64,000 nucleotides of DNA from NCBI GenBank assembly GCA_002269645.1, contig NIVC01000292.1, positions 620,001 to 684,000 of the forward strand, in the 5' to 3' direction. Each line of letters starts with the position of its first letter. Position 1 is the stretch's first letter. A program made the position numbers and the translations under genes. The notes below the pieces were generated by a model. It did not search any database and was not told the DNA's origin. It saw nothing but the letters and a program-made list of their open reading frames with translations. Positions 9,181 through 58,134 of the stretch are shown here, in pieces. This DNA is from Macrostomum lignano (Eukaryota).

Positions 9181-9242
9181 TAGAGGAGCAGAGAAGAGTG
9201 GTGTGAGGGCAGAGGGCAGAGTGGATACAGCCAAAGCCTCAC

Positions 9243-9691: not shown

Positions 9692-9822
9692 CTGCGGCGC
9701 GGGAGGTGCAGGGGACCCTCATCTTTGACCAGCTTCTTTAAGTACCGTTCCACTACCTAAACTTCCTTCTCTTCCCCTCTCTTATCTCCCCTCTCCCCTC
9801 CCCAGCCAGCCCAGCGCCTCAC

Positions 9823-18218: not shown

Positions 18219-18249
18219 GTGCAGCGAATGTGCCTCTTCTTCATCGACC

Positions 18250-18978
18250 TCAACTTCTCACATCATGGTCCATGCGACGATTCGAACCTGCAGGAGACTT
18301 ACAGGCAACAGCCGTATGGCCCACCTTCGAACAGTTGAAGCACTTCTTGTCAGCAAACGGGCACTTCGCCGCGACGTGCCGCTGCGACCGGCAACGAAAG
18401 CAGCGTCTAGTGGACTGTGGCTGGTGGGCTATCTGAAAGGCGTCCTGACTCGCAGATTTCATCACGAGAATATTGCCCTCAGCGGCCGACGCTTGAGCTT
18501 GCGCCAGAGATATTGCGGTTTCGAGAGTCAGCTTCTTCTCCGAAAGAAGCCTTCGCTGGATGTTGTCGTCAGCGATGCCAAGCACGAGCCAGTCTCTGAT
18601 CATGTCATTCAGGCTGCCGCCGAAGTTGCAGTCCCGTGCCAGTCTGCGAAGATCCGCGAGAAAATCCGCAATCGATTCACCAACTTGGCGACTCCTGGAG
18701 TAGAAACGGTAACGTAGCACGATCTCAGGAGGCTCAGGGTCGAAATGCTCTTTCAGCTTAGCGCAGATCGCTGTGTAGCTGGACTGGGCAGGCGACTCTG
18801 GAGACAGCAGGCTGGCAAGCAACTGATCCGTCTTCTTGCCGCAGACGCTAAGGAGAACGGCACGCTTCTTCTCTTCTTTGATATCATTGGCCTCAAAATA
18901 CTGCTCCAGTCTTTCTTGGTACTGAATCCACTTTTCAGTGCCCTCTTCATAGGGTTCTATTGAGCCAACCAAGCTCAT
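18250..18978 (-). CDS. gag: Gag with two CCHC zinc knuckles
   Basis: ATG at 18978 one base after the PBS (MSLVGSIEPY...); CFRCRSQRHVAAKC and CFNCSKVGHTAVAC. Confidence 0.92.
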   Translation of the reverse strand: MSLVGSIEPYEEGTEKWIQYQERLEQYFEANDIKEEKKRAVLLSVCGKKTDQLLASLLSPESPAQSSYTAICAKLKEHFDPEPPEIVLRYRFYSRSRQVGESIADFLADLRRLARDCNFGGSLNDMIRDWLVLGIADDNIQRRLLSEKKLTLETAISLAQAQASAAEGNILVMKSASQDAFQIAHQPQSTRRCFRCRSQRHVAAKCPFADKKCFNCSKVGHTAVACKSPAGSNRRMDHDVRS

Positions 18979-19242
18979 GCCTCGTCGCCACTGTAAAGAC
19001 TTAGTTTGCGTGGCAGAAAGATGCTTATGCGATAACATGATAAAATCATTCATATATGTACTTGTCGAAATAGTATTTTAACCGATCAATAATTTGGGGA
19101 CTGTAAAATAGACATATTAGTCACGTGCACGTACGCACAAAAGAACAAGCGAAGGAGAGAAGGGCACGATGGTAAAGTGTACGCAGCAACCCCCAGCACC
19201 CCACACAACGCAAACAAAGTCACTACACTAACCAACACTCAC

Positions 19243-20868: not shown

Positions 20869-22625
<1,757 letters not shown>

Positions 22626-22638
22626 ATGCGGCACAGAC

Positions 22639-23492
22639 CTGCCCTCCAGCACGGACACGATGCAGTCCCTGGTGCTGTTCACCACATCCTCATTATCGAT
22701 GGCGAAGGCCGGGTAGCTGATGACGGACAGCAGGCCGGCGTCAGTCTCCTTGGAGCAGCTCTCCCTGGGCAGCATGCTCTCCAGCACCGCGGCGCAGCTC
22801 TGCGGATCGTCGGCCATGACGTGCACGAAGGAGCGGGTACCGCCGGAGCTGCCGAAGAGGTCGAGCTCGGCCAGGGCCTCCAGCGCGGCCTTCGCCATGC
22901 CGATGGAGGTGGAGTTGAGCTCGGGCAGGCCGTGGTTGGTTTTGTCCCCGCGCTCCCAGATGCCGTAGTCGGACACGGTGTAGGCGGACTCCAGGTAGAA
23001 CACCAGGTTCTGCACGAAGGCCACCTCCTCGGGCGTGTAGATGAGCACCAGGCCGGAGGCGGTCATCTGTGCCAGCGCCAGCAGGTACAGGGACACGGCG
23101 TCCAGCTGCAGGTGGCCGTACTCGCCGTCTCCAGTCACCGGGCCGAGGTCGCTAGCCGAGAATTTGCAGTGCAGCGCGTCCAGCGGCTGCCGGCTGGTCT
23201 TGAAGCGCTCGAGCTTGTCGGACTGGCGCATCATGCAGTGCAGCAGGCTGCGCATGCACTTCACCGCCCGGCCTTCCAGGTCCTTCAGGCGGGCGCGGTC
23301 CTCGTCAGCTTCGGCCACCTTCTTGTAGGCGAGGGCGAGAGCCCACACGCACATGGCCGCATAGGTGTTGTCCCGGATGTAGGCGTGGTCCTGCTGCTCC
23401 GAGGTGGCCACCAGGCCTGTCACCGGGTTCTGGCGGTGCAGCACCGTGTCCAGCACCAGGCCGTGGTAGAACTCCAGCTGACGACGGGACGC
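22639..23492 (-). CDS. PHKA: PHKA large 5' coding exon (glucoamylase-like domain); start exon not identified
   Basis: QNPVTGL, DHAYIRDN, GHLQLDA, DYGIWERGDKTN, SIGMAKAALEAL, YPAFA motifs. The 12-exon chain sums to 3873 nt in frame. Confidence 0.97.
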
Positions 23493-23579
23493 CTGCGGGT
23501 TTTTAATAAGAGAGCTCGAAGTCTGCGGCTCTTTGGATTGGAACTTCTTTCTTGTCTTTTTCTCAGTTTTCTTGGAAAT

Positions 23580-24095
23580 TGAGATTCTAGGGATTGGGAT
23601 TCTAGGAATTGAGATTCTAGGAATTGGGATTCTAGGAATTGGGATTCTAGGAATTGGGATTCTAGGAATTGGGATTCTAGGAATTGGGATTCTAGGAATT
23701 GGGATTCTAGGAATTGGGATTCTAGGAATTGAGATTCTAGGAATTGGGATTCTAGGAATTGGGATTCTAGGAATTGGGATTCTAGGAATTGGGATTCTAG
23801 GAATTGGGATTCTAGGACTTGGGATTCTAGGAATTGGGATTCTAGGAATTGGGATTCTAGGGATTGGGATTCTAGGGATTGGGATTCTAGGAATTGGGAT
23901 TCTAGGAATTGGGATTCTAGGAATTGGGATTCTAGGAATTGGGATTCTAGGAATTGGGATTCTAGGAATTGGGATTCTAGAAATTGGGATTCTAGGAATT
24001 GGGATTCTAGGAATTGGGATTCTAGGAATTGGGATTCTAGGGATTGGGATTCTAAGGTTTGGGATTCTAGGAGAACTGGGAATCTGGGAGAGTTA
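23580..24095. repeat. 15-bp minisatellite (GGGATTCTAGGAATT)n, ~33 copies
   Basis: Direct. Confidence 0.96.
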
Positions 24096-35065: not shown

Positions 35066-35650
35066 TTAGCACTTGATGCTGAAGTCGTAGGCCATCAGCC
35101 TGTCTGCTCTGTGCCCGGTGCCGGGGCTGCTCAGCAGAGCAGCCAACGCCCGGTGGTCCGTCTGGAGCTCGAACTTTCGGCCGAATAGGCTGAAATTCCA
35201 TCGTTCGCACGCGAAGATGCACACCAGAGCTTCGCGCTTGGAGGCGGAGTGCTTGCGTTCTGCCGCGCTCAGCGTTCTTGAAGCGAAGGCCACGGGGCGG
35301 CAGTTGCCGAGCTCCTCTTCTTGGGCGAGGACTGCACCGGCTGCTGTGGCTGAGCTGTCACAAGAACTTCAGGCATGGGGGCGACACGATCAGCGACTTC
35401 AGAGCCTCAAATGCTTGCGAACGCGAAGGCGCGTCCTTCCGCAGAAGCTGCAGCAGAGACTCCGCCACCGTCGACAGAATGTCCAGAAAGTGGCCACAGA
35501 ACTGCACCATGCCGACAAACGAGGCGACCTCCTTCTGGCACTTTGGACTCTTGATGCTCGTGATGGCGTCCACGTTGAATGTGATCGATCGGAGCCCTCA
35601 CTGCTGAGAATAGCCGAGGAACTCCACGCGGTCTCTGGCCCTCTGGCAAT
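35066..35650 (-). pseudogene. Degenerate Ty3/Gypsy pol relic (RT connection + RNase H)
   Basis: FVGMVQFCGHF, AFASRTLS, REALVCIFACERW, FELQTDHRAL, broken across frames. Confidence 0.85.
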
Positions 35651-37020: not shown

Positions 37021-37506
37021 CCGCTCGTGTCTGTGCCTGCAGTTGCCATGGACAGAAGGGGATAAAAGAATAAATATATGAGGCGAGATAAAACCAAATG
37101 GAAAGTTTCAAACATAAAAATATATTTCAAATCGGTGCCAAACAGGTTGAATATAAAAATTTTCCTCATCTTCATCATTTGGAAATGAAATCGGGGAATT
37201 CGGCAGACCGGGGCAGCGGGAAAATCCAAGGCTCTGGAGAAGCAGCCGAGAGTTTTGCTGAGCTCTGCTCAGGCATTCTGGGATAAATTGGTTGCTTATG
37301 GAACTGGGATTTGCATGCAAACTTTATAGCTCAGTCGGGTGCACAAGAAGTACTGAAGATTGCATAAAGGTTTAATGGGGTTAGCGATCTGCATCTGAAT
37401 ATTAAATAAATAATTGTGTTAATTTAAGCCACTGTATGGGAGCCCAGCTCAGTGAGTGGCACACTTTGGATACACGGCAACATGAGGGCTTATCTTAGAG
37501 TACTTC

Positions 37507-37996
37507 TGTCACTGACTCATGCCAATCTGTCACTGACTCATGCCAATCTGTCACTGACTCATGCCAATCTGTCACTGACTCATGCCAATCTGTCACTGAC
37601 TCATGCCAATCTGTCACTGACTCATGCCAATCTGTCACTGACTCATGCCAATCTGTCACTGACTCATGCCAATCTGTCACTCACTCATGCCAATCTGTCA
37701 CTCACTCATGCCAATCTGTCACTGACTCATGCCAGTCTGTCACTGACTCATGCCAATCTGTCACTGACTCATGCCAATCTGTCACTCACTCATGCCAATC
37801 TGTCACTCACTCATGCCAATCTGTCACTGACTCATGCCAATCTGTCACTGACTCATGCCAATCTGTCACTGACTCATGCCAATCTGTCACTCACTCATGC
37901 CAATCTGTCACTGACTCATGCCAATCTGTCACTGACTCATGCCAAACTGTCACTGACTCATGCCAGTCTGTCACTGACTCATGCCAATCTGTCACT
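37507..37996. repeat. 21-bp minisatellite (CACTGACTCATGCCAATCTGT)n, left part (continues at 48569-48697)
   Basis: Array split by the LTR element at CACT. Confidence 0.96.
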
Positions 37997-38853
37997 TGTA
38001 GAGTGTTCTACCTCCCGTTAAAAAAAGGAAAAAAGAAGATAATCGTATAATACTACTATAAGTAAGTAAGTACACGCATGTGCGCCTAAGCTTTGAATGA
38101 ATCACGCTACCAGAAAAAGATGTTACCAGAATAATACGCCATGAGCCATTTTCCCCTTTTAGCGCAACACGTGAATTGTCATGATACTATTTTGGATCAA
38201 AAACTTGTCTATAAATACAAGCGATCTGAAGCGGTACCGGAGCCATTCTCCCCACGGAAGAGGAGCGCTCCGAAGAGGAAGCCTTAGGAGGACTTCCTGA
38301 TATACCAAGTCAATCGAGACTCGGTCGAGTTGTTGCGGTAAGCCTTCCTTATTTGCGCCGTTGTGTTAGAGACGTCTCGCTCAAGTCTATTGAGACTTGA
38401 GTCTATTTGAGTCTGTTGAGACTCTTGAGTCTGTTTAGACTCCATTGGTTGCAGTCTCCAGAAGGACTGCCCCTGATAGATCTTAGAGGACTATCAGTGG
38501 TTTCCGGAGCTATACCTAGAGTGCATAGAGGCACTGCTCGAAGAAGGAGGCTTAATTTAGACCGCAGTTTGGCGCAGGGATCCCTTTGTTAATTCGGAAG
38601 CTTCCCATTGGTCCGAGCGACAGAATCCGGCCGGAACTATTTGAAGAAGAAAGAAGAATCGGACCCGATCTACAAACGAAAGTCAGAAGTGACTATACGA
38701 GAGCAACTGAAGACAATCGAGAACTACTCCGAGAGATCTCCAAAGGACTCAAGGTAATTGAATACCTTCTGTTGACTTACTGGGTTGCCTAGCTGCTGAG
38801 CTAGAAGTGATTGTTCCTTGATTATCGAAAGTCGGGTAATAAGGAACACATCA
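37997..38853 (+). repeat. 5' LTR (857 bp), TATAAAT at 38210
   Basis: Matches 47713-48568 except one A in a homopolymer, as far as can be seen by eye. Confidence 0.97.
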
Positions 38854-39567
38854 ATTGGTGATCTCGCCCTCTCGGCACTACTCAAACTTTGAGCAATAGC
38901 CCTGATCAAGCTATTGTAAAGTGACGACAGAGCGACTTCATTAATTTTGCGCGCACGTGTTAGAGTTAACACTTTTCAAGTCCGTACGTTTTGAAACTCG
39001 AGTAAAAAATTTTGGTGTACAGGTTTGAGCACCTGTCAAATTTGAGTACTGTTTGAGCACGCGTGTTAAAATTTTGTTTTGACGAGCTCGAGCAAGTGTG
39101 AGTTAAAATAAAACCGAAATTAAATTCATCGGTACACTGAAAACAAACCGAAAATAAAAGAATCGTCGACGCAAAACAAACAAAAAAATAACGGAAACAT
39201 TTTGCCGGCACAAAAAACTAAAACTGAAATTAATTGAAACTTCGTGGAGAGCGGAGTTAATTGACAAAAGAGAGAGAGTCAAAGAAGAGAAAAAGACTTT
39301 GCAAAACAAGAAGACAAAGCCCACTTCAACTTGAAGATACACTTTGCGGGACGCCGCATAAGTGCGAAATCAGCAAGCGAACAGAACAAGTTCATTTGAG
39401 GACAACCAGTGGCAGCAAGCCACACCGCATCCGAGGCCAGCGAATAACAAATCGACACCACAAGACAATTCGTTACAGTCGAGGTTTATTCCGAGGCAAA
39501 CACCACACTGGACGATCCGTTACAAATCGATCCAGATCTTAAACTACCGTTCTATCCTATCAACAAC

Positions 39568-41868
39568 ATGGCGCGGCGCAATCCAACGGTACACAGAGAC
39601 ATCAAAGAAACGGTCGGTACCTTCTCGATGGAGAAAGATTTTAACACATTTGTCGACCACTTTGACCTGGTATGTAGGGAATACAACCTACAAAATCCAG
39701 AGAAGGCACAGCTGCTGCCACCTCTTCTCCAAGGTACTGCGCGAGAAATTTACGGCAAGCTGGATGCAGCAACACAGCAAAATTATCCAGCACTAATCAT
39801 TCAACTGCGCGCGCATTTCAACCGTTGCGGCACAAACAGATCAGTGCTGCTGCACAAGTTGCATAACAGAAGGATGCAAGCAACAGAATCCTTCCTCGCC
39901 TTTGTGGACGATATCCGCCAGATAATTAAGGCACTGCATCAGCCACCGCTGCAAGCGGCGGACCAACCGCCACTGGGAGCGGCAGAATTGGCCGCCAGAG
40001 AAAGACAACGATTGATGGATCGCGAACAAAACCTCATCCTGCACGTAATAAACAACGCACAGCCGTCACTTCGGGATAGACTTTTGCGTGAAAATATCGA
40101 AACCGAAGAAGACCTTTTGCGGTGCGGAATGCAATGGGAAGCCAGTGCCCCATTAATGACGACAGGCAACAATGAAGTGCAGAAACTGACGCAGCAATTA
40201 AACAAATTAATGCAGCACCAGACAGCTGCTATCGCCGAACAAAAAAGACGAAATGAACGAGCCTCAGCCAGATGTTACTACTGCGGACGAGAAGGACATT
40301 ATCAGATTAATTGTCCCCATTGGTCGACAAGATACGACAAGCCACGACAGACATTCAGCAATCAAAAGCCGCAGAAACCATGGCAGCAATATCAAAATCG
40401 CCAACAAGACATGAGACGCTTCGGAAAGGATGGCCGCTTCGGAAATGATGGCCGCTACGGAAATGACGGCCGCTTCAGAAATGATGGCTACAGGCCACGC
40501 AATGCCAGGTACGCACAAAGACAGCCAACGCAAGCAATGCCACGATACGCGAATGCCATCACGTACACACCGGAAAATGAGCAGCAGGAACAGCAAGTGT
40601 TCACAATTGACGACTTGGAAATGGACTTCACAGTCCCGGAACTTGACATCAGCTTGATCGAAAAGAAGACGACGCACGAGGACAACACTGACAACACAGA
40701 AGAGGCGAATGAAACCGAAATGATCGAATTAAAAGAGACCACCGGAGACAGCAGAGAAAACAGGAAGAAAGTAAATCACAAAAAAAGGGAGGAGGCGGAG
40801 AGCGACACCGGCAACGAAGAAAAGATGAAGACTGGCAGACAAAACAACTATGAATCGACAACAGTGGATGACAACAAAACAAGCACGAAAGACAAAGAAA
40901 TGAGGGAAGAAGAAGAATGTATAAGTTACGGCAACGATCACGACTGCGAGGTGCATGATGGCACGAGCGGATACCGAGCCGAAGAAGGAATACAGGAAGA
41001 ACTGAGAGCGGAAAATCTAAGCTCCGACAGCGATCAAGGCTACGAAATACAATGGAAAGATGAAGAAATGGAAAAAGAACAAATGAAAGAAAAGCCGAGT
41101 TCCGACAGCGACGAATGCTACGAGATCCGATACAAACGAAATGGTGAAGCCTATATTCAAACGGTCGACTACAAGGCAGAGAAAAGATACCAAACGCAAT
41201 GGAGTGAAACAACGGAAACATCGGAAGAAGCTACAGACGAAGATACTGAAATAACCAAAGAGCAAAGCAAATCAGAAGCCTTCCGCCTGAATCAGCCAAT
41301 GGAACAACCGAAAGAATACGATGCGGACATGGAGGATAACGAATGGCAATCGCAGCCAATGCCAGCAAAGACAACGGCAAGGTCCAAGAAGTGGAAAAAC
41401 TGGCTGCTCTGGATCATCGTGATACTACTGATAGCAGTAGTCGCCAAAGCAACGGCAATGGAGAAACCAATGATATGTCCAACGGATGCGCATATCCAAC
41501 CAATGATCTACAAGATACCAACCGACATCAAATGCAGCTACTTCAAGACAAACCAGACGAAGCCAAAGAAGATCACAATTGATCTCTACAAAGCTAACAT
41601 CAAGAAGCATCGACAACTCGGAATAGTGTGCTTTAGAGACAAGCACCTAGTGGAAAAAGTTTGGCGAGGACAGTGGAACAGAATTCGATTTTGGCAACAC
41701 GAACTACATGTGTCGCACGCTGAATGTCTACAATGGAACCAAACACTGTTCTCAAAGGATGGTCAGCTAGAACCGGATGAGAAAGTGGGGAGGCACAACT
41801 TTACCGAACGAAGAACTCAGCAAACGGACGATATGTACACTTTTCGGAAGCATGGACTAACTACATGA
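39568..41868 (+). CDS. gag: Gag (capsid, one CCHC knuckle, acidic linker) fused in frame to a signal/TM segment and the envelope N-terminus
   Basis: CYYCGREGHYQINC (40273-40314); hydrophobic WLLWIIVILLIAVVAKATA (41401-41457) followed by a Cys-containing ectodomain with NQT sequons. Confidence 0.9.
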   Translation: MARRNPTVHRDIKETVGTFSMEKDFNTFVDHFDLVCREYNLQNPEKAQLLPPLLQGTAREIYGKLDAATQQNYPALIIQLRAHFNRCGTNRSVLLHKLHNRRMQATESFLAFVDDIRQIIKALHQPPLQAADQPPLGAAELAARERQRLMDREQNLILHVINNAQPSLRDRLLRENIETEEDLLRCGMQWEASAPLMTTGNNEVQKLTQQLNKLMQHQTAAIAEQKRRNERASARCYYCGREGHYQINCPHWSTRYDKPRQTFSNQKPQKPWQQYQNRQQDMRRFGKDGRFGNDGRYGNDGRFRNDGYRPRNARYAQRQPTQAMPRYANAITYTPENEQQEQQVFTIDDLEMDFTVPELDISLIEKKTTHEDNTDNTEEANETEMIELKETTGDSRENRKKVNHKKREEAESDTGNEEKMKTGRQNNYESTTVDDNKTSTKDKEMREEEECISYGNDHDCEVHDGTSGYRAEEGIQEELRAENLSSDSDQGYEIQWKDEEMEKEQMKEKPSSDSDECYEIRYKRNGEAYIQTVDYKAEKRYQTQWSETTETSEEATDEDTEITKEQSKSEAFRLNQPMEQPKEYDADMEDNEWQSQPMPAKTTARSKKWKNWLLWIIVILLIAVVAKATAMEKPMICPTDAHIQPMIYKIPTDIKCSYFKTNQTKPKKITIDLYKANIKKHRQLGIVCFRDKHLVEKVWRGQWNRIRFWQHELHVSHAECLQWNQTLFSKDGQLEPDEKVGRHNFTERRTQQTDDMYTFRKHGLTT

Positions 41869-43346
41869 CACGAAACAGTTACCTAATCAGGAATATTCCA
41901 TTCTATCACAATCCTTTTGAAAAAATGGAGTCGCTACAACTGCAATTAAGCGACTGCCGATACAGCAAAGGATGGTGTCCAACGCCGATACTGCGGAATG
42001 AGGAACTATACAGCTTACCGTTGAGTCCAACATATCATCAAGACTATCGATGGCAAATTATACGCAGAGGCGACTCACGATATGAAGAACCATCTAAGTC
42101 ACGACAATACTTCTTCGCGTGGGAAGTTGAGCCGGAAATTGACTGCAAGCTTCAAAAGTATCACACAGTTGAAGGAGGACTACTGTCAAATACGTTTTTG
42201 GCAAAGTCAGGAGACTTGGCACTGACGTTTCAAAAGAAACCAGTCGAGCAAAAACTGAAATGCAAGGATACAGACAAGACACTATTCATCTCGGAACAAG
42301 AGATACCAGTCTACGTAAAAGATGACGACAAACAAACCTTTCTGGCGATCATCAACGGAACGTATCAACAGCAGGAACAACAGAACAGACGACGACGTGA
42401 CATCGAACGTCCCAAACTGGTGTCAAACCGACTACTGTCAGCAAAGATAACGGCTTTGGATCACAATCTACACAACCAGTTAAACCACTTGCATCGAACA
42501 CTGGTCCAGCTAACTTGCAAAATGCACGCAATCAACTTAAATTATGCCAGACAAAACTACTATGTCAACCCTACGATGACTTTTCGTAAAATCACCGGAA
42601 TGACGAACGTTTTGGCAGTTCCAATATACGAGCATCTGTTAATATACAAGTGCACGCCGATACAGCACTTTAACATCTTGCCGTCGAACACGTCAACAAC
42701 CTGCTACGACAAGCCAAGGATTGAAGCGTTCTACGAAGGAAAACGAATTCAGGGATTCTTGGACACGGTACACAACATCATCGTTGGCACCGCAATACCG
42801 AGACCTTGCACCACGGCAGCAAACTACTATCAACTGGACAATGCACTACACGTCATCAAAACAACTGGAACGACAGCAAACGTCACAGAACCGGAAGTAA
42901 TCGTCGACGAAAACTACGACATGGAGGATTTGAAAATCCGATTCAACAGAACGAAGTATACGCCATTCGCCGATATCCAACTTGACGAGATAACACCAGG
43001 ATGGACGATCAACGACTTCTTGCAAGCGTTCATCACCCAACGCAAGATGATTCACCAGCTGTTCACAAGAAAGGACAAAGGAACCGGGACAGGAAGATTT
43101 CCCGTCCTTGTTTCAATGGACAGCGCCATCAAATCATTTTGGACAAATAGCTTCTGGGAGCTGCTCAATGGAAGAGGCAGTCTCTATCAAGGATTCATCT
43201 TCTACGGTGCTTGCATTGTGTGGATTGTCACGGCAATCTTCATCATTTCATCGATCGTACGGTGCTTCAGTCAAACTTGTCCAAGAGCTAAGAAGACAGT
43301 GAATGCCATAATGCAAAGAACGACAACGGAAGCGACAACAGTTTAG
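41781..43346 (+). CDS. env: Envelope glycoprotein, class III (gB/chuvirus-like), central and C-terminal part
   Basis: Frame open from 41781; DCRYSKGWC, furin-type RRRR (42387-42398), long helix then NPT..RK..G...V.A......L.I.KC (gB domain III/IV-like), CYDKP...GFLD, several N-X-S/T, TM FIFYGACIVWIVTAIFIISSIV. Confidence 0.8.
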   Translation, partial: ESGEAQLYRTKNSANGRYVHFSEAWTNYMTRNSYLIRNIPFYHNPFEKMESLQLQLSDCRYSKGWCPTPILRNEELYSLPLSPTYHQDYRWQIIRRGDSRYEEPSKSRQYFFAWEVEPEIDCKLQKYHTVEGGLLSNTFLAKSGDLALTFQKKPVEQKLKCKDTDKTLFISEQEIPVYVKDDDKQTFLAIINGTYQQQEQQNRRRRDIERPKLVSNRLLSAKITALDHNLHNQLNHLHRTLVQLTCKMHAINLNYARQNYYVNPTMTFRKITGMTNVLAVPIYEHLLIYKCTPIQHFNILPSNTSTTCYDKPRIEAFYEGKRIQGFLDTVHNIIVGTAIPRPCTTAANYYQLDNALHVIKTTGTTANVTEPEVIVDENYDMEDLKIRFNRTKYTPFADIQLDEITPGWTINDFLQAFITQRKMIHQLFTRKDKGTGTGRFPVLVSMDSAIKSFWTNSFWELLNGRGSLYQGFIFYGACIVWIVTAIFIISSIVRCFSQTCPRAKKTVNAIMQRTTTEATTV

Positions 43347-46300
43347 AACTAACAGAAACTGCACATTGTGAGGTTCAAGGGCAACCGACACTAGCAACGC
43401 GGCTATATCCATCGATTCCGACAACACCAACGGCACCAAGGATACAACCACCCAACTATCAAGCAGAACAGCACGAGCCAAAATGGCCGGAAAACTACGT
43501 CTGTACGCTACACGCCGAGATTGGCAAAGCAATGGCTCAGGTCATTGTCAACAACTTGCCATGTCGAGCACTACTGGATTCAGGCAGCTCGATCACAGTC
43601 ATCTCGCAACAATTATGCAACAAGCTACGACTCGCGGTACGACCAGCAGCAATCGCAGTTGCAGGAGCAGGAGGACATTCACTCAACATCCTAGGAAAAG
43701 CAGATATCGACTTGAAAATTGCTAATAAACAGCTGACGGTCCCGACGTACATCATCGACAGACTACCAAACCAAGACGTCATCGTTGGAATCGACACGTT
43801 CAAGCAGCTTCAACTACCATTGACCTTCGACTTCAACAAGCAAACGTTTAGGATCGACACGGTGGAGCAACCGCTGATCAACCAGATTCGAGTACTACCG
43901 AAAGTAACTCTGCAGCAAGATGTCATTATCCAGCCTGAAAGCGCATGCTGGGTCAGAGCGAAAACGACCAGCGCGGCAGATGAAGCAATGATATTTGATC
44001 CACACAGGAGAGTCACGGCAAAACATCAAATCATGATGCCTACGGCACTAGTGCTGGTTGCAAAGGATAAGCAACTGCCAGTACAAATCTTCAACCCGAA
44101 CACAGAAACGGTTCATCTACGACAAGGAATGTGCATCGGTCATCTCAACACCCAAGCATCGGTTATGCTGATTGAACAAGCGACTCCACGACTAACAGAG
44201 GAAGAATTTCAAAAGAAGATCAATTTGGATGACAGCCCGATTACGGAACAGCAAAAGAGGAAAGTTCGACAGCTGTTGTGGAAGTACAACGAAGCCTTCT
44301 GCCATCATGATTACGACATCGGACGAGCCAAGGACATCAAACAGGAAATCAAACTTCTGCCGCACACGGAACCAATTCAGTGCAAGCCGTACCCGATCGC
44401 CAAGCATCTGCAACAACACTTTGACGAAATCATCGATAAAATGCTAAAGCACGGCATCATCAGCAAAGCTATTTCGGCTTACTCCTCACCGTGCCTACTG
44501 GTACAAAGAAGGAGACAAACGAAAGACGACTCGTATGCGACTTCAGACTGTTGAACAAGTACATACCGACGGATCAGCAAAGCCTACCGAAGATCTCCGA
44601 ACTACTAGCAAAGCTCAACACGGCAAAATTGTTCACGGTGTTCGACCTACGTCATGGATTTTGGCAAATTGAAATCGAGAAAGAGTCACGACAGTACACG
44701 GCTTTCAAAACCTACAATGGACAAGTATACGAGTACAATCGATCGCCGATGGGACTCAGCAACAGCCCAGCAACGATGAGCCGACTAACAGCATACATGC
44801 TTGCAGGATGCACGAACCTGTTGCACTATGTTGACGACATCTTGGCCCACGGAGAAGACTTCGAACGACTCTATGAAGCGACGGAGAAGGCCCTCGCGCT
44901 TATACAACGTCAAGGTCTGAAGCTACAACCACTAAATGCAAATTCTTCCGAGACAACGTGCGTTACCTGGACATCAGGTGACAGCCAAAGGAATCTCACC
45001 GGACCCAGACAACGTGGAAAAGGTGAAGAAGTTTCCTACGCCAACCAGTATAACGAAGGTCCAATCATTCCTTGGACTTGCGCAATACTTCAGGAAGTTC
45101 TTACCTAACTTCGCAAAGACAGCAAAGCCACTGTACGACCTGCTCAAGTTCGACAAATGGAAGCAAGACAACTGGACACAGAGACAACAGGAAAGTTTCG
45201 ACGAAATCAAACGACAGCTGACATCAGACGCACTGCTACAGCATCCGGACTTCGACAAGCCCTTCATCATCGAGACAGACGCCTCAGGAACGGGACTCGG
45301 AGCAGTCCTACTACAGGAAACCGAGGACAAGAAGGAACGACCTATTGCTTACGTCAGTCGAGCACTCAAACCAAATGAGACAAAGTGGTCAGCTACGGAA
45401 CGAGAGCTACTAGGAGTCTTGTTCGCCCTGCGACAGTTTCATTACTACATCTATGGTTCTCCAATACAGACGATAGTACGCACGGATCATGCACCATTGA
45501 CCTACGTCGTAACTACAAAAGGACAGACCAACAACCGACTCATCAGGATGACACTCAAGATCCAGGATTACAACTACAAACTCGTCTACAAACCAGGAAT
45601 TACCAACAAAGCCGCGGACGCCCTGTCAAGAGCCTATGAAGTCAACGCCATTCATCCAATCCCTAACATCAAGGAGTTGGTGGATGAAACCGAGCGCGAC
45701 AACTTCTACCAAGCGGTTAAAGACGACGACAAGAACATCAAACTTAGCCCCATGGAACGAAAGTTCCTACGCAAGCAACGACAACACCTAACAATCAATA
45801 AGTCACGGCTCTACTGGATGAGCGACAATAAACCCAAGATCTACATACCATATTCGTTTCGGCAAGCAATTCTCAACGAGCTACACGACAACCCACTCGC
45901 TGGACACCTGTCGGCAGCAAAGACCATCGCGAGAGTGGAACAATACTACTTTTGGCCAACTATGTACGGCGACATCAAGCAGTATTGCAACAACTGCCAT
46001 TCATGTGCTGCATCAAAGACAGGACGACGACAGAAACCGCAGCTACAGTCCATTCCGAAGTCGACTACAATGGACTGTCTAAGCATCGACATCACCGGAC
46101 CACTGCCACCGAGCTGTCTCCAGGGCATCGCCTACACCTACATTCTAACCGCCTTGGATATCTTCTCGAAGTTTGCTATCGCCATACCGATACCGGACAT
46201 CACAGCTCAGACAGTGGCAATGAGTTTCTTCAACGAAATCATTTGCAAGTACGGCACGCCGAAGAACCTCACATCGGACAACGGATCGCAGTTTACATCG

Positions 46301-47038
46301 CAACTGTTTCAGCAAGTCGTAAGGATTCTCAACATTACGCAGATCTACACATCGACCTACAATCCGAAGGCAAACATGGTTGAACGGTTTCACCGCAACC
46401 TGCACGAGATGATTACACATTTCGCGCACCAACAGCCGGAAGACTGGATCATCTACCTGCAATCTGTAACAATGGCCTACAACAGCGCTATTCATCGATC
46501 AACGGACAATACGCCATTCTTCCTAATGTTTGGACGAGACTTCCAACCGCCGAATCTGCTCGCACAGCAATTGCTACCATCGCAGTACGTGGAAGTACCG
46601 ACTTCCATTCAGAAATTCGTCACGCAACTACACCTCGCATGGAAGATCGCCAAGCACAACATTGACAACCAGGTGGCTCTGACCACCGGCAACGACGCGA
46701 GATCGACAACCCTGACGGCCGGCGACATCGTTTACCTACACTACCCGCCGCAGCAGACGCATAAACATGCACAGAAGTATAAAGGACCCTATCGAGTGGT
46801 CCAACTAACGTCACCGACAACGGCACGCCTGGCTAATGTACAAGATCCACATCAGCACCAGTTCTACGTACACATTCATCGACTAAAGAAGATCAACACT
46901 GACACCGCGACGTTTCTACCGACATTAGACAACGCTGATCGCACGCGTTCAACGAACCGCCACATCGCGACGAAGCACGAGGAGACTCAAACGACAGATG
47001 TGAGCCAGCCACATGGCTACAACCTACGACCACGCTAG
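43292..47038 (+). CDS. pol: Pol (PR, RT, RNase H, integrase) broken by three single-base frameshifts
   Basis: LDSGSS; YSSPCLLV; FDLRHGFWQI; YVDD; ETDASG, TERELLG, TDHAPL, ADALSR; H-x6-H...C-x2-C; IDITGP, SDNGSQF, VERFH; GPY/F motif KGPYRV. Confidence 0.95.
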
Positions 47039-47158
47039 AGTTTAGAGAACAACCCCGTGTAGTGACCGGGATAAAGAATAGCACTACAGCTTCGCAAGCT
47101 TGTCGTAAAAGGCGACTAATCCGAGCGACACAAAGACAGCGACAAATTGACAACAATT

Positions 47159-47533
47159 ATGGGCAACGCACTGTCGAAACAGGCGCCCCAGCCTCAGCAG
47201 CTATATGACTGCCCGATATGTTTAACTGATGACTTGGCTGTCAAGCCACCGACTATTTGCATCAACGAACATAAAGTTTGCGGACAATGTTTAAGCGATT
47301 CACATTATATTCAGCCATGGCAGAATTGTCCCCTCTGTAGAGATAGTTTGCGACAATGTGCCTATTGTTATTCTTGGCGCACGTTTCAATATTGTAACCA
47401 CCAACATTTTATTTGCATGCACTGTTTGAAGCAAACCGCTAGTAGGGGCGTTATAGGATGCCCCTTATGTAATAGTATGCCGCGAGACTGCACGTTTCGA
47501 AAGTGGTGTCGGATCAAACCTGATGCCACTTGA
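47159..47533 (+). CDS. 124-aa N-myristoylation-motif, tandem-RING protein inside the LTR element
   Basis: MGNALS; CPIC-x12-C-x3-H-x2-C-x2-C-x12-CPLC then CAYC-x8-C-x3-H-x2-C-x2-C-x11-CPLC. Confidence 0.8.
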   Translation: MGNALSKQAPQPQQLYDCPICLTDDLAVKPPTICINEHKVCGQCLSDSHYIQPWQNCPLCRDSLRQCAYCYSWRTFQYCNHQHFICMHCLKQTASRGVIGCPLCNSMPRDCTFRKWCRIKPDAT

Positions 47534-47712
47534 TGTCTACGCGATATTCGAGTTTTGACCGCAATATGTACTGAAAAGTTTTTAGAGTTTTGACCAAACC
47601 CTCGCTTCACTAGACGCGCACAAAATCAATTGTTTATTTCCTATATTAACTGATCACCACAGAATTTTATTGTTAAAACTCGGGACGAGTTTTTTCGTAA
47701 AAAGGGAGATTT

Positions 47713-48568
47713 TGTAGAGTGTTCTACCTCCCGTTAAAAAAGGAAAAAAGAAGATAATCGTATAATACTACTATAAGTAAGTAAGTACACGCATGTGCGC
47801 CTAAGCTTTGAATGAATCACGCTACCAGAAAAAGATGTTACCAGAATAATACGCCATGAGCCATTTTCCCCTTTTAGCGCAACACGTGAATTGTCATGAT
47901 ACTATTTTGGATCAAAAACTTGTCTATAAATACAAGCGATCTGAAGCGGTACCGGAGCCATTCTCCCCACGGAAGAGGAGCGCTCCGAAGAGGAAGCCTT
48001 AGGAGGACTTCCTGATATACCAAGTCAATCGAGACTCGGTCGAGTTGTTGCGGTAAGCCTTCCTTATTTGCGCCGTTGTGTTAGAGACGTCTCGCTCAAG
48101 TCTATTGAGACTTGAGTCTATTTGAGTCTGTTGAGACTCTTGAGTCTGTTTAGACTCCATTGGTTGCAGTCTCCAGAAGGACTGCCCCTGATAGATCTTA
48201 GAGGACTATCAGTGGTTTCCGGAGCTATACCTAGAGTGCATAGAGGCACTGCTCGAAGAAGGAGGCTTAATTTAGACCGCAGTTTGGCGCAGGGATCCCT
48301 TTGTTAATTCGGAAGCTTCCCATTGGTCCGAGCGACAGAATCCGGCCGGAACTATTTGAAGAAGAAAGAAGAATCGGACCCGATCTACAAACGAAAGTCA
48401 GAAGTGACTATACGAGAGCAACTGAAGACAATCGAGAACTACTCCGAGAGATCTCCAAAGGACTCAAGGTAATTGAATACCTTCTGTTGACTTACTGGGT
48501 TGCCTAGCTGCTGAGCTAGAAGTGATTGTTCCTTGATTATCGAAAGTCGGGTAATAAGGAACACATCA
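47713..48568 (+). repeat. 3' LTR (856 bp)
   Basis: See 5' LTR. Confidence 0.97.
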
Positions 48569-48693
48569 CACTGACTCATGCCAATCTGTCACTCACTCAT
48601 GCCAATCTGCCACTCACTCATGCCAATCTGTCACTGACTCATGCCAATCTGTCACTGACTCATGCCAGTCTGTCACTGACTCATGCCAGTCTG

Positions 48694-49155
48694 TCACTGC
48701 AGAAATTTGTGCTCCAGCAGCTCCGCGGTGGCCGCTCGCCTCCTCGGCTCCCTCTGGACGCACCGTCCGTAGAAGTCCCTCAGCAGGGCGGAGGTCCCGG
48801 CCGGCAGCTGCGGCATGTCGTGGTTTCGAATCCTCAGCGGGATCTGCTGCCACATGAGCTGCCCATTCGGAGGCTTTATCTCCAGCATCTCGAACACGGA
48901 GCAGCCGAAAGCCCACACGTCAGTCTTGCGTGAGTACACGATTCTTCCGTCCTCACTGAACAGCTCAGGAGCCATGAAGTAGGGGGTGCCGCAATCCCTC
49001 TTGGTGCTGCGCATCGTGGCGAAGACCTCCTTGGCGAGACCGAAGTCGATCAGCTTGATGAGGCCCTCGTTGGTGAGCATCAAGTTGGAGCACTTGATGT
49101 CACGGTGCAGGGTGACGGGACTGCGGCTGTGCAGGAAGTGGAGCGCTGAGCAGAT
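48694..49155 (-). CDS. Ankyrin-kinase A, last exon (MAP3K/STE11-like Ser/Thr kinase C-lobe)
   Basis: [28 protein letters not shown]; acceptor actcacag. Confidence 0.93.
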
Positions 49156-49176
49156 CTGTGAGTTGGGGAGCGAGTG

Positions 49177-49420
49177 AGCAGGGGTAGTGTGGGATCTGAG
49201 CTGCTTGGAGAAGTTTCTCACTGCTGCATGGGGTGGTGTGGGATCTGAGCTGCTTGGAGAAGTCCCTCACTGCTGCATGGGGTGGTGTGGGATCTGAGCT
49301 GCTTGGAGAAGTCCCTCACTGCTGCATGGGGTGGTGTGAGATCTGAGCTGCTTGGAGAAGTCCCTCACTGCTGCATGGGGTGGTGTGGGATCTCACTTGC
49401 TTGGAGAAGTCCCTCACTGC
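49177..49420. repeat. 49-bp exon/intron-junction minisatellite, 4 copies plus the original
   Basis: Unit = last ~24 nt of the exon plus the start of the intron. Confidence 0.92.
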
Positions 49421-49787
49421 TTCCTCATCGAAGGGCCGTCGCTGCAGCTGCATCAGCTCAGAGAGGCTGTGGCCGGAGATCAGCTCGGTGAAGATGCACA
49501 GCTTGCCCTTCTTGATGCGCTCAGACTTGAGGAACTGCACGATGTTCGGGTGCCGGATGGCCTTCAGGACGGAGATCTCCGCATTCTCCTTCTCGATGGC
49601 CTCGTCCATCAGCCTGGCGCTGCTGGCACCTTCCAGCCTGACGATCTTGACAGCCACAGTCTGGCGCTTATCGGTGAACGCCTTGTACACCTGGCCGAAG
49701 CCACCTGCTCCGAGCAGCTGCTTGTTGCCGTCACCATCGAGAAGGAAGTCCCAGCTGGAGAAGGCGGGGTCCAGAGACGGCCTCGCA
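49397..49787 (-). CDS. Ankyrin-kinase A, kinase N-lobe exon
   Basis: LGAGGFGQVY, VAVK, NAEISVLKAIRHPNIVQF. Confidence 0.92.
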
Positions 49788-49942
49788 CTGAAAGAGGAGA
49801 GGGTTGGGAGACTGAAGCACTGCGGGATTGCTGCAGAAATGGGGAACTGAGCAGGCAGGGAGAGTCTGTCAGGTGATCATTGTGAGCCACTCTTAGCTGA
49901 ACCAAATGCAATTTCTCAAGTGAAAAGTGGAAGACGGCCTGC

Positions 49943-51522
49943 CTTGCTGACGGAGTCTCCTCGGACTGCGCGTCCACCGCCCGCCGCAGCTGCAAGCCCG
50001 ACATCGCCTGGCCCAGCCTCCGCTCTTCTCCATCAGGCTGCTGCCGCCGCTGCTCTGCGATCCACTCCCGAATCCGAGCTCCGTGCTGAGAGTTCCGCTC
50101 TGCGTAGTCGGCCACCGACTTGCCACCGGAATCGAGAAAGTCAAATACGGCGAGGCCGAGAGAGTCCGCGATGAGGCGGAGCGAGTCCAGGTCGTGATCC
50201 TGAGCAGCCAGGTGAGCAGGTGTGGCTCCGTTTGAGTCTTTTTCCAACAGACAGGCCGGACCGAGCTCAGAGATGAGCCACTTGAGACAGGAGTTGGTCT
50301 CATTCATAGCAGCTTTGTGAATGGCAGTTTGTTGTAAGTAGCCAGGCTGATGGAAGCAGTCGGATCCGAGGACTGATTTGAAGAACTGCATGGAATCGGC
50401 GCCCTGAAACTTAGCAGCGAGATGGACGGGAGTGTTTCCTTGTTGGTCTCGAACGGAGAGACAGTCGGTTCCGCACTCGTTCACCAGCCACTTGAGACAG
50501 GAGTTAGTAGCTTCATTCCTAGCGGCCCAGTGAATGGCAGTGCCTTGTAAGTAGCCAGGCTGATGGAAGCAGTCGGATCCGAGGACTGATTTGAAGAACT
50601 GCATGGAATCGGCGCCCTGAAACTTAGCAGCGAGATAGACGGGAGTGTTTCCTTGTTGGTCTCGAACGGAGAGACAGTCGGTTCCGCACTCGTTCACCAG
50701 CCACTTGAGACAGGAGTTGGTCGCTCCATTCACAGCGGCCCAGTGAATGGCAGTTTCTTGTGAGTAGCCAGGCTGATGGAAGCAGTCGGATCCGAGGACT
50801 GATTTGAAGAACTGCATGGAATCGGCGCCCTGCTTCCAAGCAGCGAGATGGACGGGAGTGTTTCCTTGTTGGTCTCGAACGGAGAGACAGTCGGTTCCGC
50901 ACTCGTTCACCAGCCACTTGAGACAGGAGTTGGTCGCTCCATTCACAGCGGCCCAGTGAATGGCAGTTTCTTGTGAGTAGCCAGGCTGATGGAAGCAGTC
51001 GGATCCGAGGACTGATTTGAAGAACTGCATGGAATCGGCGCCCTGCTTCCAAGCAGCGAGATGGACGGGAGTGTTTCCTTGTTGGTCTCGAACGGAGAGA
51101 CAGTCGGTTCCGCACTCGGTCACCAGCCACTTGAGACAGGAGTTAGTAGCCCCATTCTCAGCGGCAAAGTGAATGGCAGTGCGTTGGAGTCGGCCAGGCT
51201 GATGGAAGCAGTCGGATCCGAGGCTGCGGTGAATGAGCTCCATCCATGACACATCTCGAAACAAGGCAGCCAGGTGCACAGGAGTGTTGCCTCTTTCGTT
51301 GGTGCAGGTGAGGCAGTCGGGTCCGAGTTTCTTAATAAGAGCCTCGAAGCAGCGGAGACCGTCGGATAGATAGGTCACGTGATGAGCAATGGACTGATTC
51401 AACTGGTTGATGTTGACTGCGAAGTTGGCGTCGAGCTGCCGGCAGAGGGGGAGCAGGCGGCCTGCGTCCTTGGCACGGAGGGCTGCAGCGACTTCTTCGC
51501 GCACTGAGGCTTGCTGGGCCAT
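49943..51522 (-). CDS. Ankyrin-kinase A, exon 1: ankyrin-repeat array with 213-bp (71-aa) tandem units
   Basis: Repeated GNTPVHLAA / TAIHWAA motifs; ATG preceded by ctgcagac; 3' end inferred at a GC donor matching the phase-2 intron of paralog B. Confidence 0.85.
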
Positions 51523-51719
51523 GTCTGCAGAGTGGCGCGGACTGCGAGCGCGCTGGGCTGCTCTGTGCCGCTTTTTAAATGGACGGTGCGGCGAGGCGGG
51601 CTGAGCGGCACCCGAGCCAAACTACTGTGAGTAGGCAAAGCAGAGTAAACTGCAGATGCTGTGCTGAGTCTGTCAGTTCTCAGCTCGGAACTCAGCGAGA
51701 CCGACTGCTGGCCGCAGGT

Positions 51720-54460: not shown

Positions 54461-54570
54461 CTCGCAGATCTCGCAGGCAATCCAATGCTACTCAGTTATG
54501 CTACTCTACTGCCTACTTCCAGTAGTGCAAGCGCAGCCAGTCAGACAAACACCGAGCAGCAGCCGCTCAC

Positions 54571-55385
54571 CTGCTGGTCGGTGAGGTGAGCAAACGGCTG
54601 CTCCCTGCAGAAGGTGAGCATCTCCCAGAGCGTCACGGCGAAGCTCCAGACGTCGCTGCGGCAGGAGAAGCGGCCGTGCAGGACGGCCTCCCAGGCCATC
54701 CAGCGGATCGGCAGCGAGGCGCCGCGACCTCCGTCCAGCCTGCAGTAGTCAGCAGAGTAGAGAGGCTGAGACATGCCAAAGTCGCAGATCTTTACCTGGT
54801 AGTCTTCACCCAGCAGGCAGTTGCGGCAGGCCAGGTCTCGGTGCACCAGCTGCAGGGACTCCAGGTACTTCATGCCGCTGGCAATCTGAGCTGCCAGGTA
54901 GATGAGGCAGCCGTGAGAAAGCGGCGGCTCAGGTGATGCTGCAGCGGCCGCCCTGGAGCGCAGGAACTGGTGCAGGTCCCCATGCTGCATGAACTCCACC
55001 AGGATGCACTGCTGCGCCGCTGCGTCCTTGGTTGCCACGCCCAGCACCCTGACGATGTTCGGGTTTTGCAGGCGCGCCAACAGCCGCATCTCGCGCCGGA
55101 AGTCGCGGCGCGCCTGCGGCCCCGCGCCAAGCCGGAGAGTCTTGGCCGCCACCAGCAGCAGCCGGCCGCCAGGAGCGGCCCACTCGGCCAGGCGGACCTC
55201 GCCGAACTGGCCGGCACCAAGGCGCTCTTTCAGCGCCACGGAGCCCGGCGCCACCTCGAGAGCGGCGACCGCGTCGGAGTCGGCGCCGCCGTCCAGATCG
55301 TCAGGGACTCCAGCGACACCGCCGCAGTCCATGGCGGAGGCGAGGTCCGCGTCCGGACAGGCGTAGACTGTGTTGCCCGAGCAGC
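54571..55385 (-). CDS. DDR: DDR-like receptor tyrosine kinase, juxtamembrane + kinase exon
   Basis: GCSGNTVYACP (DDR juxtamembrane), LGAGQFGEV, HRDLACRNCL, DFGMSQPLYSADY, LPIRWMAWE, SDVWSFAVTLWE. Confidence 0.9.
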
Positions 55386-55970
55386 CTTCGGATTAGGGGA
55401 GTAGGGGAGTGGATTTAGAGGGGATTATTGGAATTTGGAAGGCCAGCTGCAGCTGGTGATGGGGAATGGCGCTCGCTCAGATTCCGGGAAACTCAGACAC
55501 CAGCAGCTCAGAAATCAGGTGCTCCATCAGCTCAGGACTCAGAGCCTGCCTTCGCTGCTGCCGCTCGCTCACGCCTCAGGAGTTCAGCGCAGACTGACAG
55601 CTCGAAGAGGCTGAGCTGGCTGCATCATCTCAGAGGTGCCGGTGAGGCAAAGTCATCGAGAGGCTGGCCAAGTGGCCTCATCAGCGGCTGCCCCATCAGT
55701 GACGGTTACGCAATGAGCTCTGCTCCCCAGCAGAATTCCCTCCCCTCTGCTGTCTGCCTCACCGGCAGGAAGTGGCTGAGCTGCCTCATCTCTCTCCCAG
55801 CCTTTCAGCTGCTCAGTTGATCACTTTCCACTTGATGCGGCTGAGATGCTGGGACAAAGAGCTGCTCGCATGGCTGATAAGTGTTTGATGCTGGGGGCTT
55901 CATCAGTGGGGATCTGAGCAGGAATGCGGACTGAGAAGACTCAGGTGTCACCTGATGGCACTGATAGAGC

Positions 55971-58134
55971 TCAGTGGGAAATATGAGATGTTGAGGCAAT
56001 AGGGTAATCCCCTAATCCTCGTAACAGGTGAGTCAGGCCACCTGTTGATGTGCATGCCGTGAGCCTATGAACATGCTGACGTTGCAAGCGACTTTCTGCC
56101 ACAGGCGGCACTGGTCTCTTGGAATCGAAAATTGCTAGAAGCGGTTTGTGGCCAGTGACCAGGATGAAATTTCGACCAAACAGGTACTTATGGAACTTCT
56201 TAAGTCCAAATATAATTACCAATGCTTCATTTTCAATTTGGGCATAGTTATTTTCAGCAGCTGACAGTTTTCTAGAAGCGTAGGCGATTGGCCTGTCTCC
56301 GGTCTTTGTTTCATGAGAAATGACCGCACCAAAACCGTAAGGTGAAGCGTCATATTCTAGCTTCAGCTTCTTGGACAGATCATAGTGAGTCAGCACCTTT
56401 CTTGAAGTAAGTTGATCTTTGACGTGCTTGAACGCGGATTCGAACTCGGCTGGCCAGTCGAAATCCTTTTCTTTTCGAAGTCGCAAGTAAAAGGGGTGCA
56501 TCCGAGTTGCCAGATTCTGGATGAATTTTCCATAGTAATTTACCAGTCCAATTCAAGCCCTCAGCTCGGACACATTTCGTGGGCGTGGAGCCTCATGGAT
56601 AGCTCTGATCTTGTCCTCAGTTGGGTGAATTCCCTTTTCATCCATCCTGTATCCAAGGAAAGTGATAGACGTCTGCTCGAATTTGCACTTCGACTTCTTT
56701 AGTCTGACACCTCGCTCTCGAAAGCGTTGCAAAACCTTCTTCAGATTTTGCAAGTGTTCCTCGGAATTCTTGCCAACTACTAAAACATCGTCAATGAAGC
56801 AGATGACTCCGCTCAGTCCTTGCAGCATCTTGTCCATGGCCATCTGGAAAACTACCGGTCCACTGGCTAGTCCGTATTGCAGCCGCTGGCACTGAAACAA
56901 TCCCTTGTGCGTATTGAGCACAATGTACTGTTTGGAGTCTTCGTCCAATTATAGCTGCAGAAATGCTTGAGTAGCGTCCAACTTAGGGATATACTTGCCT
57001 CCATTTAGAGAACTAAACAGATCTTCCTGCCTGGACAATGGGTACTGGTCGACAATCAGAACCTTGTTCAGTGTCGTCTTGAAATCCGCAAATTCTCACT
57101 GATCAAAGCGAACAGGCTTTTTGGTTATCAAAATTTCTACGAAGTAAGCAGGGTTACCTCTGTCAAATACCCGATTAATGCTTGGTGGTGATACTCTGGC
57201 TTCTTGGCCACACGGTTCATTCGCGAAGTACTCCGTAACTTGCTTGTTGCGAAATCCTTTCAGAGCCACGGTAGACTTACATGCAACTCCCAGGTGTCCT
57301 TCTTTTCCACACTTGTTGCACTTTTTATTACGATGTGGGCAAGCATTTGCCAAGTGATCTGGGCCAGAGCAACGGTAGCACCTGCGAGTAAATGTAGGCT
57401 TCTCCTTGTTTCCTTCCCTGATTTGGCGGGTCACAGTAGCGCGTCGAAAAGCTGGCTTCCGCTTCTGGAGCTGGTTGCTTCGAGTGCCAACTCTGTTCAC
57501 TGCTGGAGCAGATCCTTGGATGCTGCGAGCGTTCTTGAATGCATTCTCAATGACCTGGGCCTCCTCAACTGCGACCTTGAATGTCGAGTCGTCTTTTAGA
57601 GTGGTCAACAGTTTGTTCAACATATGCTCGTCTCTGAGGCCGAAGTCAAAAGCATCGCGGAGCGCTTGATCCAGGAATGCATCAAACTTGCAGCTGGCAC
57701 TGAGGCTTCGAAGACTTACAACGAAGTCGGCTATGGTCTCGCCATCCTTCTGCTTCCTTTGAGCGAATACGAATCGTTGAGCAATAGAGCTCAATTCCGG
57801 TGTAAACTGGTGCCGGAGTGCAGTCAGTAGCTCCTCGTAGGACTTGTCCTCGCACTTCGCTGGCGCAATTGCGTTCCTCAGAATTGAGTAAGCCTCTTCT
57901 CCGATCAGGGTCAGCAGGTTCGCCTTTTCTCAGCTTCATCAGTGACTTTCTTGGCCACATGAAAATACTCCAGCCGCTCCTCGTACTCCTCCCAGTTCCG
58001 AGGGTTGCTGCAGTTGAATGGTTCGATAACCGGCCTCGTCGCCATTGTTGTGTTTGTATCGTATTTCCTAAAAGCCGTTTATTATAAAAGCAAGCACGCA
58101 GGCTCGAAGCCTAAGGAACGCAGCTTTCACAACA
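55971..58134 (-). mobile_element. Degenerate Mag-like Ty3/Gypsy element (5' LTR, gag, partial RT/RNase H)
   Basis: Candidate 89-bp LTR TGTTGTG...CACAACA (58046-58134); PBS TGGCGACGAGG overlapping the gag ATG at 58045; gag with two CCHC; FIDD RT; RNase H IAYASRKL; frameshifts, stops and PR deletion; no 3' LTR seen. Confidence 0.88.

Follow-up and report, generated by a model that had tools for sequence, protein, structure and literature searches.

A young Ty3/gypsy element of Macrostomum lignano with a gB-type envelope between Gag and Pol and double-RING accessory open reading frames

According to the main text of PMC13524379 (Chary and Hayashi 2026), errantiviruses with the order GAG-ENV-POL occur in Nematoda, Bryozoa and Platyhelminthes, carry only envelope (env) genes of the herpesvirus gB type, and do not form one clade. 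These elements were classified there by GyDB profiles, their ectodomains may sit between two transmembrane (TM) domains, and the first report of the flipped order (env before pol), in nematodes, is credited to Sacco et al. 2022. Here, we analysed a 64,000-nt stretch of the Macrostomum lignano genome (contig NIVC01000292.1, positions 620,001 to 684,000; hereafter the window), which holds a Ty3/gypsy element at 37997-48568 with the order gag-env-protease (PR)-reverse transcriptase (RT)-RNase H (RH)-integrase (IN). This element is almost certainly a young insertion of an actively spreading GAG-ENV-POL family of Ty3/gypsy (Metaviridae) with a gB-type env. It shares with the gB-type errantiviruses of PMC13524379 a Ty3/gypsy pol, an env between gag and pol, and a TM-flanked gB-type ectodomain. 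The gag-env-pol layout with a gB-type env is thus already known: an earlier note on this DNA had tentatively regarded it as new, but it is in print for flatworms in PMC13524379, and a matching element is tabulated there.

The tabulated element is Platyhelminthes_Rhabditophora_Mlig_errantivirus_2, whose row in PMC13524379 gives an LTR (long terminal repeat) of 863 bp, LTR starts 9,727 apart, a 12-nt primer-binding site (PBS) and 16 copies. The 12-nt PBS is identical in the window family, and LTR length and spacing match (857-864 bp and 9,706-9,758 in the 15 of 24 loci in which both LTRs were seen). Because of these matches, and because a second Macrostomum family is the closest other one, we take the window family, judged by these table features, to be the catalogued family or a near sister. 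The closest outside Env homolog with a pol is indeed this second Macrostomum Env-before-Pol family (P0005; 2,852 aa, 29% Env identity), in which an insertion of about 230 aa interrupts the middle of the ectodomain match; it was not among the rows of the PMC13524379 table that were examined. The main text of PMC13524379 describes three ORFs (open reading frames) and a primer tRNA listed as 'others', whereas the family here has a single predicted chain and tRNA-Val. No mention of a polyprotein, a fused or single ORF, or accessory genes was found in that main text (figures and the authors' repository lie outside this scope). A discussion of single-polyprotein topology and the double-RING ORFs described below, which we did not find in print, are modest extras to the published picture.

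Other described systems share parts of this design. Insect errantiviruses (gypsy, ZAM) and Retroviridae likewise carry gag, pol and env between LTRs, but their env follows pol as an ORF of its own and encodes a class I F-type or retroviral Env, neither of which is found here. Tas is a BEL/Pao element with a gB/chuvirus-like env. In BEL/Pao elements with such an env, the protease is of the Peptidase_A17 type and env follows integrase, whereas the protease here is gypsy-type and env precedes pol; one of the Env homologs (P0046) is such a BEL/Pao chain, with the same env type placed after integrase. Mosquito BEL/Pao elements with a gB/chuvirus-like env were reported by Dezordi et al. 2020, as cited in PMC13524379. 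Another homolog is a Panagrolaimus chain with the order Env-PR-RT-IN. The nematode endogenous retroviruses (NERVs) place env before pol as the window family does. They reportedly have a continuous gag-env-pro-pol ORF, a Nyamiviridae/Chuviridae-like glycoprotein and extra ORFs for a small hypothetical protein or a helicase. Class III fusogens (herpesvirus gB, the G proteins of nyamiviruses, chuviruses, xinmoviruses and rhabdoviruses, and GP64) share their fold with the Env described here over nearly the whole ectodomain. They differ in that identity is 10-15% and that the Env here lies in a retroelement polyprotein, has an internal signal and is encoded without gH/gL partners.

The boundaries of the element and its near-identical LTRs, which the earlier note had placed at the same positions, were confirmed (Table 1). 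The element has the TG...CA ends, a target-site duplication (TSD) within the 4-6 bp of Ty3/gypsy elements, a PBS and a polypurine tract. Its LTRs differ by one 1-base gap and 0 substitutions, so the insertion is very young. It lies in a 21-bp tandem array, of which 37505-37996 and 48569-48699 flank the element. The 12-nt PBS core was found in all 24 loci scanned. The assignment to tRNA-Val follows from 29 pattern matches, of which 8 are one tRNA-like sequence, 7 of these with an AAC anticodon as judged by eye. Troyka was dropped as a candidate, given the 3-bp TSD and CG ends in the part of its description consulted. Pol has the order PR-RT-RH-IN, a gypsy-type protease, an H2C2 integrase and a GPY/F motif, and Pfam domains place PR, RT, RH and IN downstream of the envelope as proposed before. 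In pairwise comparison, RT identity to homolog polyproteins is 30-43%. Two copies (L004 and L005 on G000:C2447) lie 9,730 bp apart, the LTR spacing, and are probably in tandem with one common LTR. A low-depth contig joint from 38853 to 42219, in short-read runs X1 and X17, probably reflects nesting of one insertion in another or a copy with a deletion; a splice reading of this joint, from the LTR end into env, was rejected because its ends are not splice ends and it is also present in run X17.

The envelope has the fold of a class III, gB-like fusogen and is under purifying selection. As query we used the unbroken natural env of a sister copy, whose C-terminal piece does not differ from that of the window. 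A full phmmer scan yielded 51 homologs, 40 of which were joined with 4 sequences from the host genome in a profile of 44 sequences, leaving out the longest chains and one short fragment. This profile matched Epstein-Barr virus gB (E 3e-15), and of the 27 matches listed all but one were herpesvirus gB. A single-sequence search of Env against the PDB gave no match (best E 0.25). The AlphaFold model of the ectodomain, a monomer, had a mean predicted local distance difference test score (pLDDT) of 77.5 and a predicted template modelling score (pTM) of 0.52, and showed the PH-like domains, central helix and crown of the gB/G architecture. In Foldseek, it matched gB of Kaposi's sarcoma-associated herpesvirus with E 1.6e-21, and its top viral fold match was Nyavirus G (E 4e-24). 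Against gB of herpes simplex virus 1 (HSV-1), the model reached Z 11.4 with a root-mean-square deviation (rmsd) of 7.7 over 408 aligned residues, while Chandipura G, GP64 and Thogoto G scored below HSV-1 gB. Profile, model and fold search thus agree with the earlier suggestion of a class III rather than a baculovirus-F-type protein. The RRRR site, the NPT motif and the C-terminal TM segment were likewise confirmed, but the label 'Cys-rich' was too strong: the ectodomain of 574 residues contains 12 Cys, together with 6 N-glycosylation sequons. In the model, the RRRR site falls within a disordered loop that precedes a 47-residue central helix, and it is kept in all five long frames. In herpesvirus gB, furin cleaves at the corresponding place. 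Matches in Atlas (0.89 for Env, 0.91 for the RING ORF) were taken as leads only.

The ratio of nonsynonymous to synonymous substitution (dN/dS) of env was 0.05-0.09 in all four pairs of natural copies, as low as that of pol; for several regions compared between families, dS is saturated. These values bear on the possibility that an ordinary gypsy element has picked up a fragment of a host gene, or carries a passenger in decay, as its glycoprotein. The weak direct Pfam match (PF24664, Monjiviricetes fusion; E 1e-5, below the cut-off) and a word-based homolog search with the env piece, which is limited in sensitivity and found none, would fit such an origin. The viral class III fold and the purifying selection led us to reject it, and the same arrangement, with env in the same position, recurs in distant homologous elements; we give this origin next to no chance.

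In the window copy, the coding region is spread over five overlapping frames with four frame breaks (Table 1). The proposal that Gag runs in frame into the envelope held in part: the single frame 39448-41868 covers Gag, the acidic linker and the hydrophobic segment and reaches into the ectodomain, but a break inside env follows at 41781-41868, and the env frame ends at 43346. In most sister copies, env is fused to Gag and also to Pol. A DNA search for sister copies, in which 20 of 153 candidates were scored, gave 94-100% identity for all 20. An Env search (83 of 233 candidates scored) gave 86 matches, and for 12 of these the surrounding frame is free of stops over 2,370-2,538 aa. A common frame holds Gag and the internal signal at 11 of 19 loci, the second TM segment and PR at 13 of 20, and all domains at 4 of 20; four of the six sister regions fetched for the long-frame work were picked for their long frames. 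A second family, with 61-64% Env identity, also keeps a single frame. Only the window copy has the PR/RT and RT/RH breaks, which are missing in all 21 sister copies compared, and the env-internal break is common to one of the 20 sister copies covering it. In addition, short-read contigs from all four runs disagree with the window within the intervals of three of its four breaks. Since sister copies lack them and short-read contigs differ, errors of assembly or mutations confined to this copy probably account for most of the window breaks; the copy must have been assembled wrongly or else be defective. Given the long stop-free sister frames and the mostly private window breaks, the normal product of the family is predicted from sequence to be one Gag-Env-PR-RT-RH-IN polyprotein of about 2,500 aa.

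The env-tail/PR junction is where Pol output might be regulated. There, a variant or recoding would make Gag-Env the major and Gag-Env-Pol the minor product, as in retroviruses. The window and 5 of the 21 sister copies, from two Env subtypes, have the same env end with PR in the -1 frame, and across 43000-43700 no substitution distinguishes them from read-through copies, so that a real split variant is possible. However, the other 16 of 21 copies differ from the window at this junction, the diverged family reads through, and no slippery heptamer of the form X-XXY-YYZ lies near it (the coding region has four in all, of which the one at 42411 comes closest). Two short-read contigs span the junction, each with one gap relative to the window whose place is not shown, and a recurring long-read error would explain the shared break equally well. 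Regulation of this kind therefore seems distinctly improbable, and the break itself may be a recurring error or a real variant. Under the single polyprotein, the lack of a slippery heptamer near the env/pol junction would mean that Gag, Env and Pol are made in equal amounts.

Multiple near-identical genomic copies are present, as in GAG-ENV-POL errantiviruses of the gB type. These copies are mosaic: 500-bp blocks with 0 and with more than 80 substitutions alternate, most strongly in the N-terminal env block, a pattern which points to recombination between co-existing subtypes.

Each of the five long frames has just two hydrophobic regions (19-residue windows, Kyte-Doolittle at least 1.6), one on either side of Env, as the flavivirus-like topology put forward in the earlier note needs. 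Applying the rules of endoplasmic reticulum (ER) insertion to these two regions gives a two-pass topology with a cytosolic Gag, a luminal Env and a cytosolic Pol, which we regard as very likely. Among 24 long homologs scanned, the protease follows Env in the same chain in 12 and a Gag marker precedes Env in 7; these chains come from gene prediction, and the 12 include one chimeric model from the window's own family. In the group P0039, P0024 and P0046, two homolog chains have two protease matches.

Under this topology, Gag and the linker would be made in the cytosol, after which the internal hydrophobic segment would act as a signal and thread Env into the ER. Signal peptidase would free the Env N-terminus and leave Gag tethered to the membrane. 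The second TM segment would halt transfer, so that PR-RT-RH-IN would stay cytosolic and joined to the Env tail until the element protease cuts. Env would be glycosylated, trimerise and undergo furin cleavage in the loop that precedes the central helix. Made 1:1:1 at the same membrane, Gag, Env and Pol would assemble enveloped particles that may pass from cell to cell, for instance out of the soma into the germline or into stem cells. A tRNA-Val would prime reverse transcription, and integration would give the 4-bp duplication.

By analogy with enveloped viruses, such enveloped cell-to-cell transfer is the outcome we somewhat favour. Its main rival is cell-cell fusion: the same element with the same topology might use Env without free particles, fusing neighbouring cells or internal membranes or anchoring capsid assembly at the ER, and spread directly from cell to cell. 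The covalent joining of Env to Gag and Pol, which ties assembly to the membrane of synthesis, speaks for this, and the Discussion of PMC13524379 treats the entry route of gB-type elements as unknown. On the other side, a full-length class III ectodomain, the furin-type site in every long frame and purifying selection are traits of enveloped viruses, although cell-cell fusion is still compatible with them. We consider spread without free particles rather unlikely.

Downstream of pol, the window contains an ORF with two tandem RING-like zinc motifs, which the earlier note had missed. It is a shortened form of an ORF of about 220 aa, and the window subtype lacks a second paralog; both regions fetched, from a close copy (L027:200-1523) and the diverged family (L028:198-1569), hold two tandem paralogs of about 210-250 aa. 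The RING ORF had 146 matches in the genome (G000; 150 of 211 candidates scored). The four RING proteins compared, although only 21-40% identical, all share sixteen zinc ligands and a W-P-x-P motif. Each RING has eight ligands in C3HC4 order, with a Cys-to-His spacing of x3 versus the usual x1. Pfam RING families match three of the four proteins, one of them above the cut-off, and one of the four has an N-terminal Gly motif that may indicate myristoylation. In a low-confidence structural model, the best RING match had Z 4.4 and an rmsd of 2.0 over 44 aligned residues; the model had no viral match in Foldseek at E <= 0.001 and no PDB match at Z >= 8, which is not proof of a new fold. Word-based searches with the RING ORF and the RING alignment and a search of viral contigs, all limited in sensitivity, found no outside homologs.

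No description of such RING ORFs was found in the literature searched, with Repbase, GyDB, subscription journals and figure files outside this scope, and 'RING' is mentioned nowhere in the searched text of PMC13524379, its preprint, PMC12801592 and PMC5408684. Since invertebrate gypsy elements are already known to carry additional ORFs downstream of pol (PMC5408684), the RING ORFs count as new cargo rather than as something new in kind. They may form an undescribed accessory gene family of Ty3/gypsy, with a helical C-terminal domain of no assigned class. Herpesvirus ICP0 and baculovirus RING proteins are ubiquitin ligases that act against host defence. The RING ORFs are optional, fast-changing accessory genes; the role we tentatively prefer for them, without holding it to be more likely than not, is as antagonists of host defence of the ubiquitin-ligase type. 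The full combination of a two-pass Gag-Env-Pol polyprotein with flavivirus-like threading and a variable double-RING cassette of ubiquitin ligases, serving anti-defence or budding, is a more doubtful proposal. Seven contigs of G000 (C1130, C2121, C87, C272, C4009, C1063 and C1064) carry clusters of many same-strand RING paralogs, and those on C1130, C2121 and C87 also have several Env matches. Elements in tandem or nested in each other might account for these clusters, as might enlarged RING cassettes or loci resembling small-RNA clusters.

As a whole, a young gB-type GAG-ENV-POL element with a single polyprotein, enveloped spread and RING accessory genes is likely the best explanation of the locus. 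Several points weigh against it. The window copy as assembled, with its four breaks, cannot make the polyprotein, and 6 of 22 copies, the window included, have the env-tail/PR break with identical flanks and no other nearby difference. The topology rests on hydropathy and motifs. Whole-chain TM-scores of the Env model, a monomer with the low pTM given above (0.52), are 0.40-0.47 to gB. Finally, the RING model is of poor quality (pLDDT 62.6), and comparisons of RING orthologs are saturated in dS.

Table 1. Positions of the features of the element within the window
Feature	Position	Strand	Evidence or remark
Target-site duplication, 4 bp	left 37993..37996, right 48569-48572	+	within 21-bp tandem array
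5' LTR	37997..38853	+	857 bp, TG...CA; 99.88% identity with 3' LTR
Primer-binding site	38856..38869	+	14 nt complementary to host tRNA-Val 3' end
Gag core, with CCHC zinc knuckle at 40273-40314	39568..40329	+	PF00098 E 4e-4; DUF1759 E 0.002
Linker (mostly acidic, fast-evolving), Gag to internal signal	40330..41400	+	dN/dS 0.36-0.61
Internal signal / first TM: basic n-region, h-region 41401-41442, A-x-A ahead of predicted Env start	41380..41457	+	sequence; cleavage inferred
Env ectodomain, class III (gB-like)	41458..43193	+	profile, fold, selection; break 41781-41868 in window
Furin-type RRRR	42387-42398	+	sequence
NPT	42567-42575	+	sequence
Second TM (about 43194-43265) and cytosolic tail	43194..43346	+	continues into PR in 13/20 loci
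Aspartic protease (LLDSGS)	43520..43828	+	PF13650 E 2e-10
Reverse transcriptase (YVDD)	44440..45108	+	PF00078 E 5e-21; frame break at each end in window
RNase H	45152..45640	+	PF17919 E 2e-37
Integrase: H2C2 zinc domain, DDE core, GPY motif 46784-46792	45845..47038	+	Pfam and motifs
Accessory ORF, two tandem RING-like zinc motifs	47159..47533 (ORF 47120-47533)	+	124 aa from first Met
Polypurine tract	47699..47709	+	sequence
3' LTR	47713..48568	+	856 bp
Frame breaks in window copy	env 41781-41868; env-tail/PR 43292-43346; PR/RT 44440-44554; RT/RH 44900-45108	+	open reading frames

Within the element, dN of Gag is near 0 between close copies, and identity of the linker between families is 27%. 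Four 18-bp repeats past the zinc knuckle of gag (40417-40488) encode an Arg/Gly/Asn/Asp-rich repeat. Between PR and RT, a conserved 224-aa stretch (43829-44500) has a dN/dS of 0.03-0.06 and no Pfam match; we take it to resemble the degenerate dUTPase-like insert of some gypsy clades. On the minus strand of the window, a host gene with ankyrin repeats and a protein kinase domain (48694-51621) ends just before the 21-bp array; its kinase frame stops at 48694, before the repeats, and an intronic insertion was therefore dropped. The minus strand also holds other LTR-element remnants (PR-RT at 16941-19077, an RNase H piece at 35066-35368 and a gag piece at 57096-57929), as well as exons resembling a phosphorylase kinase regulatory subunit (PF19292, PF00723) and a tyrosine-kinase exon (3082-4506, 8965-9756, 22575-24092 and 54541-55392).

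The single-chain design predicts a 1:1:1 ratio of Gag, Env and Pol and membrane-tethered assembly, and this young multi-copy family, whose host is probably a laboratory flatworm, is a useful model for how the envelopes of gB-type retroelements work. If they are true ligases, the double-RING ORFs would point to flatworm host restriction factors of retroelements.

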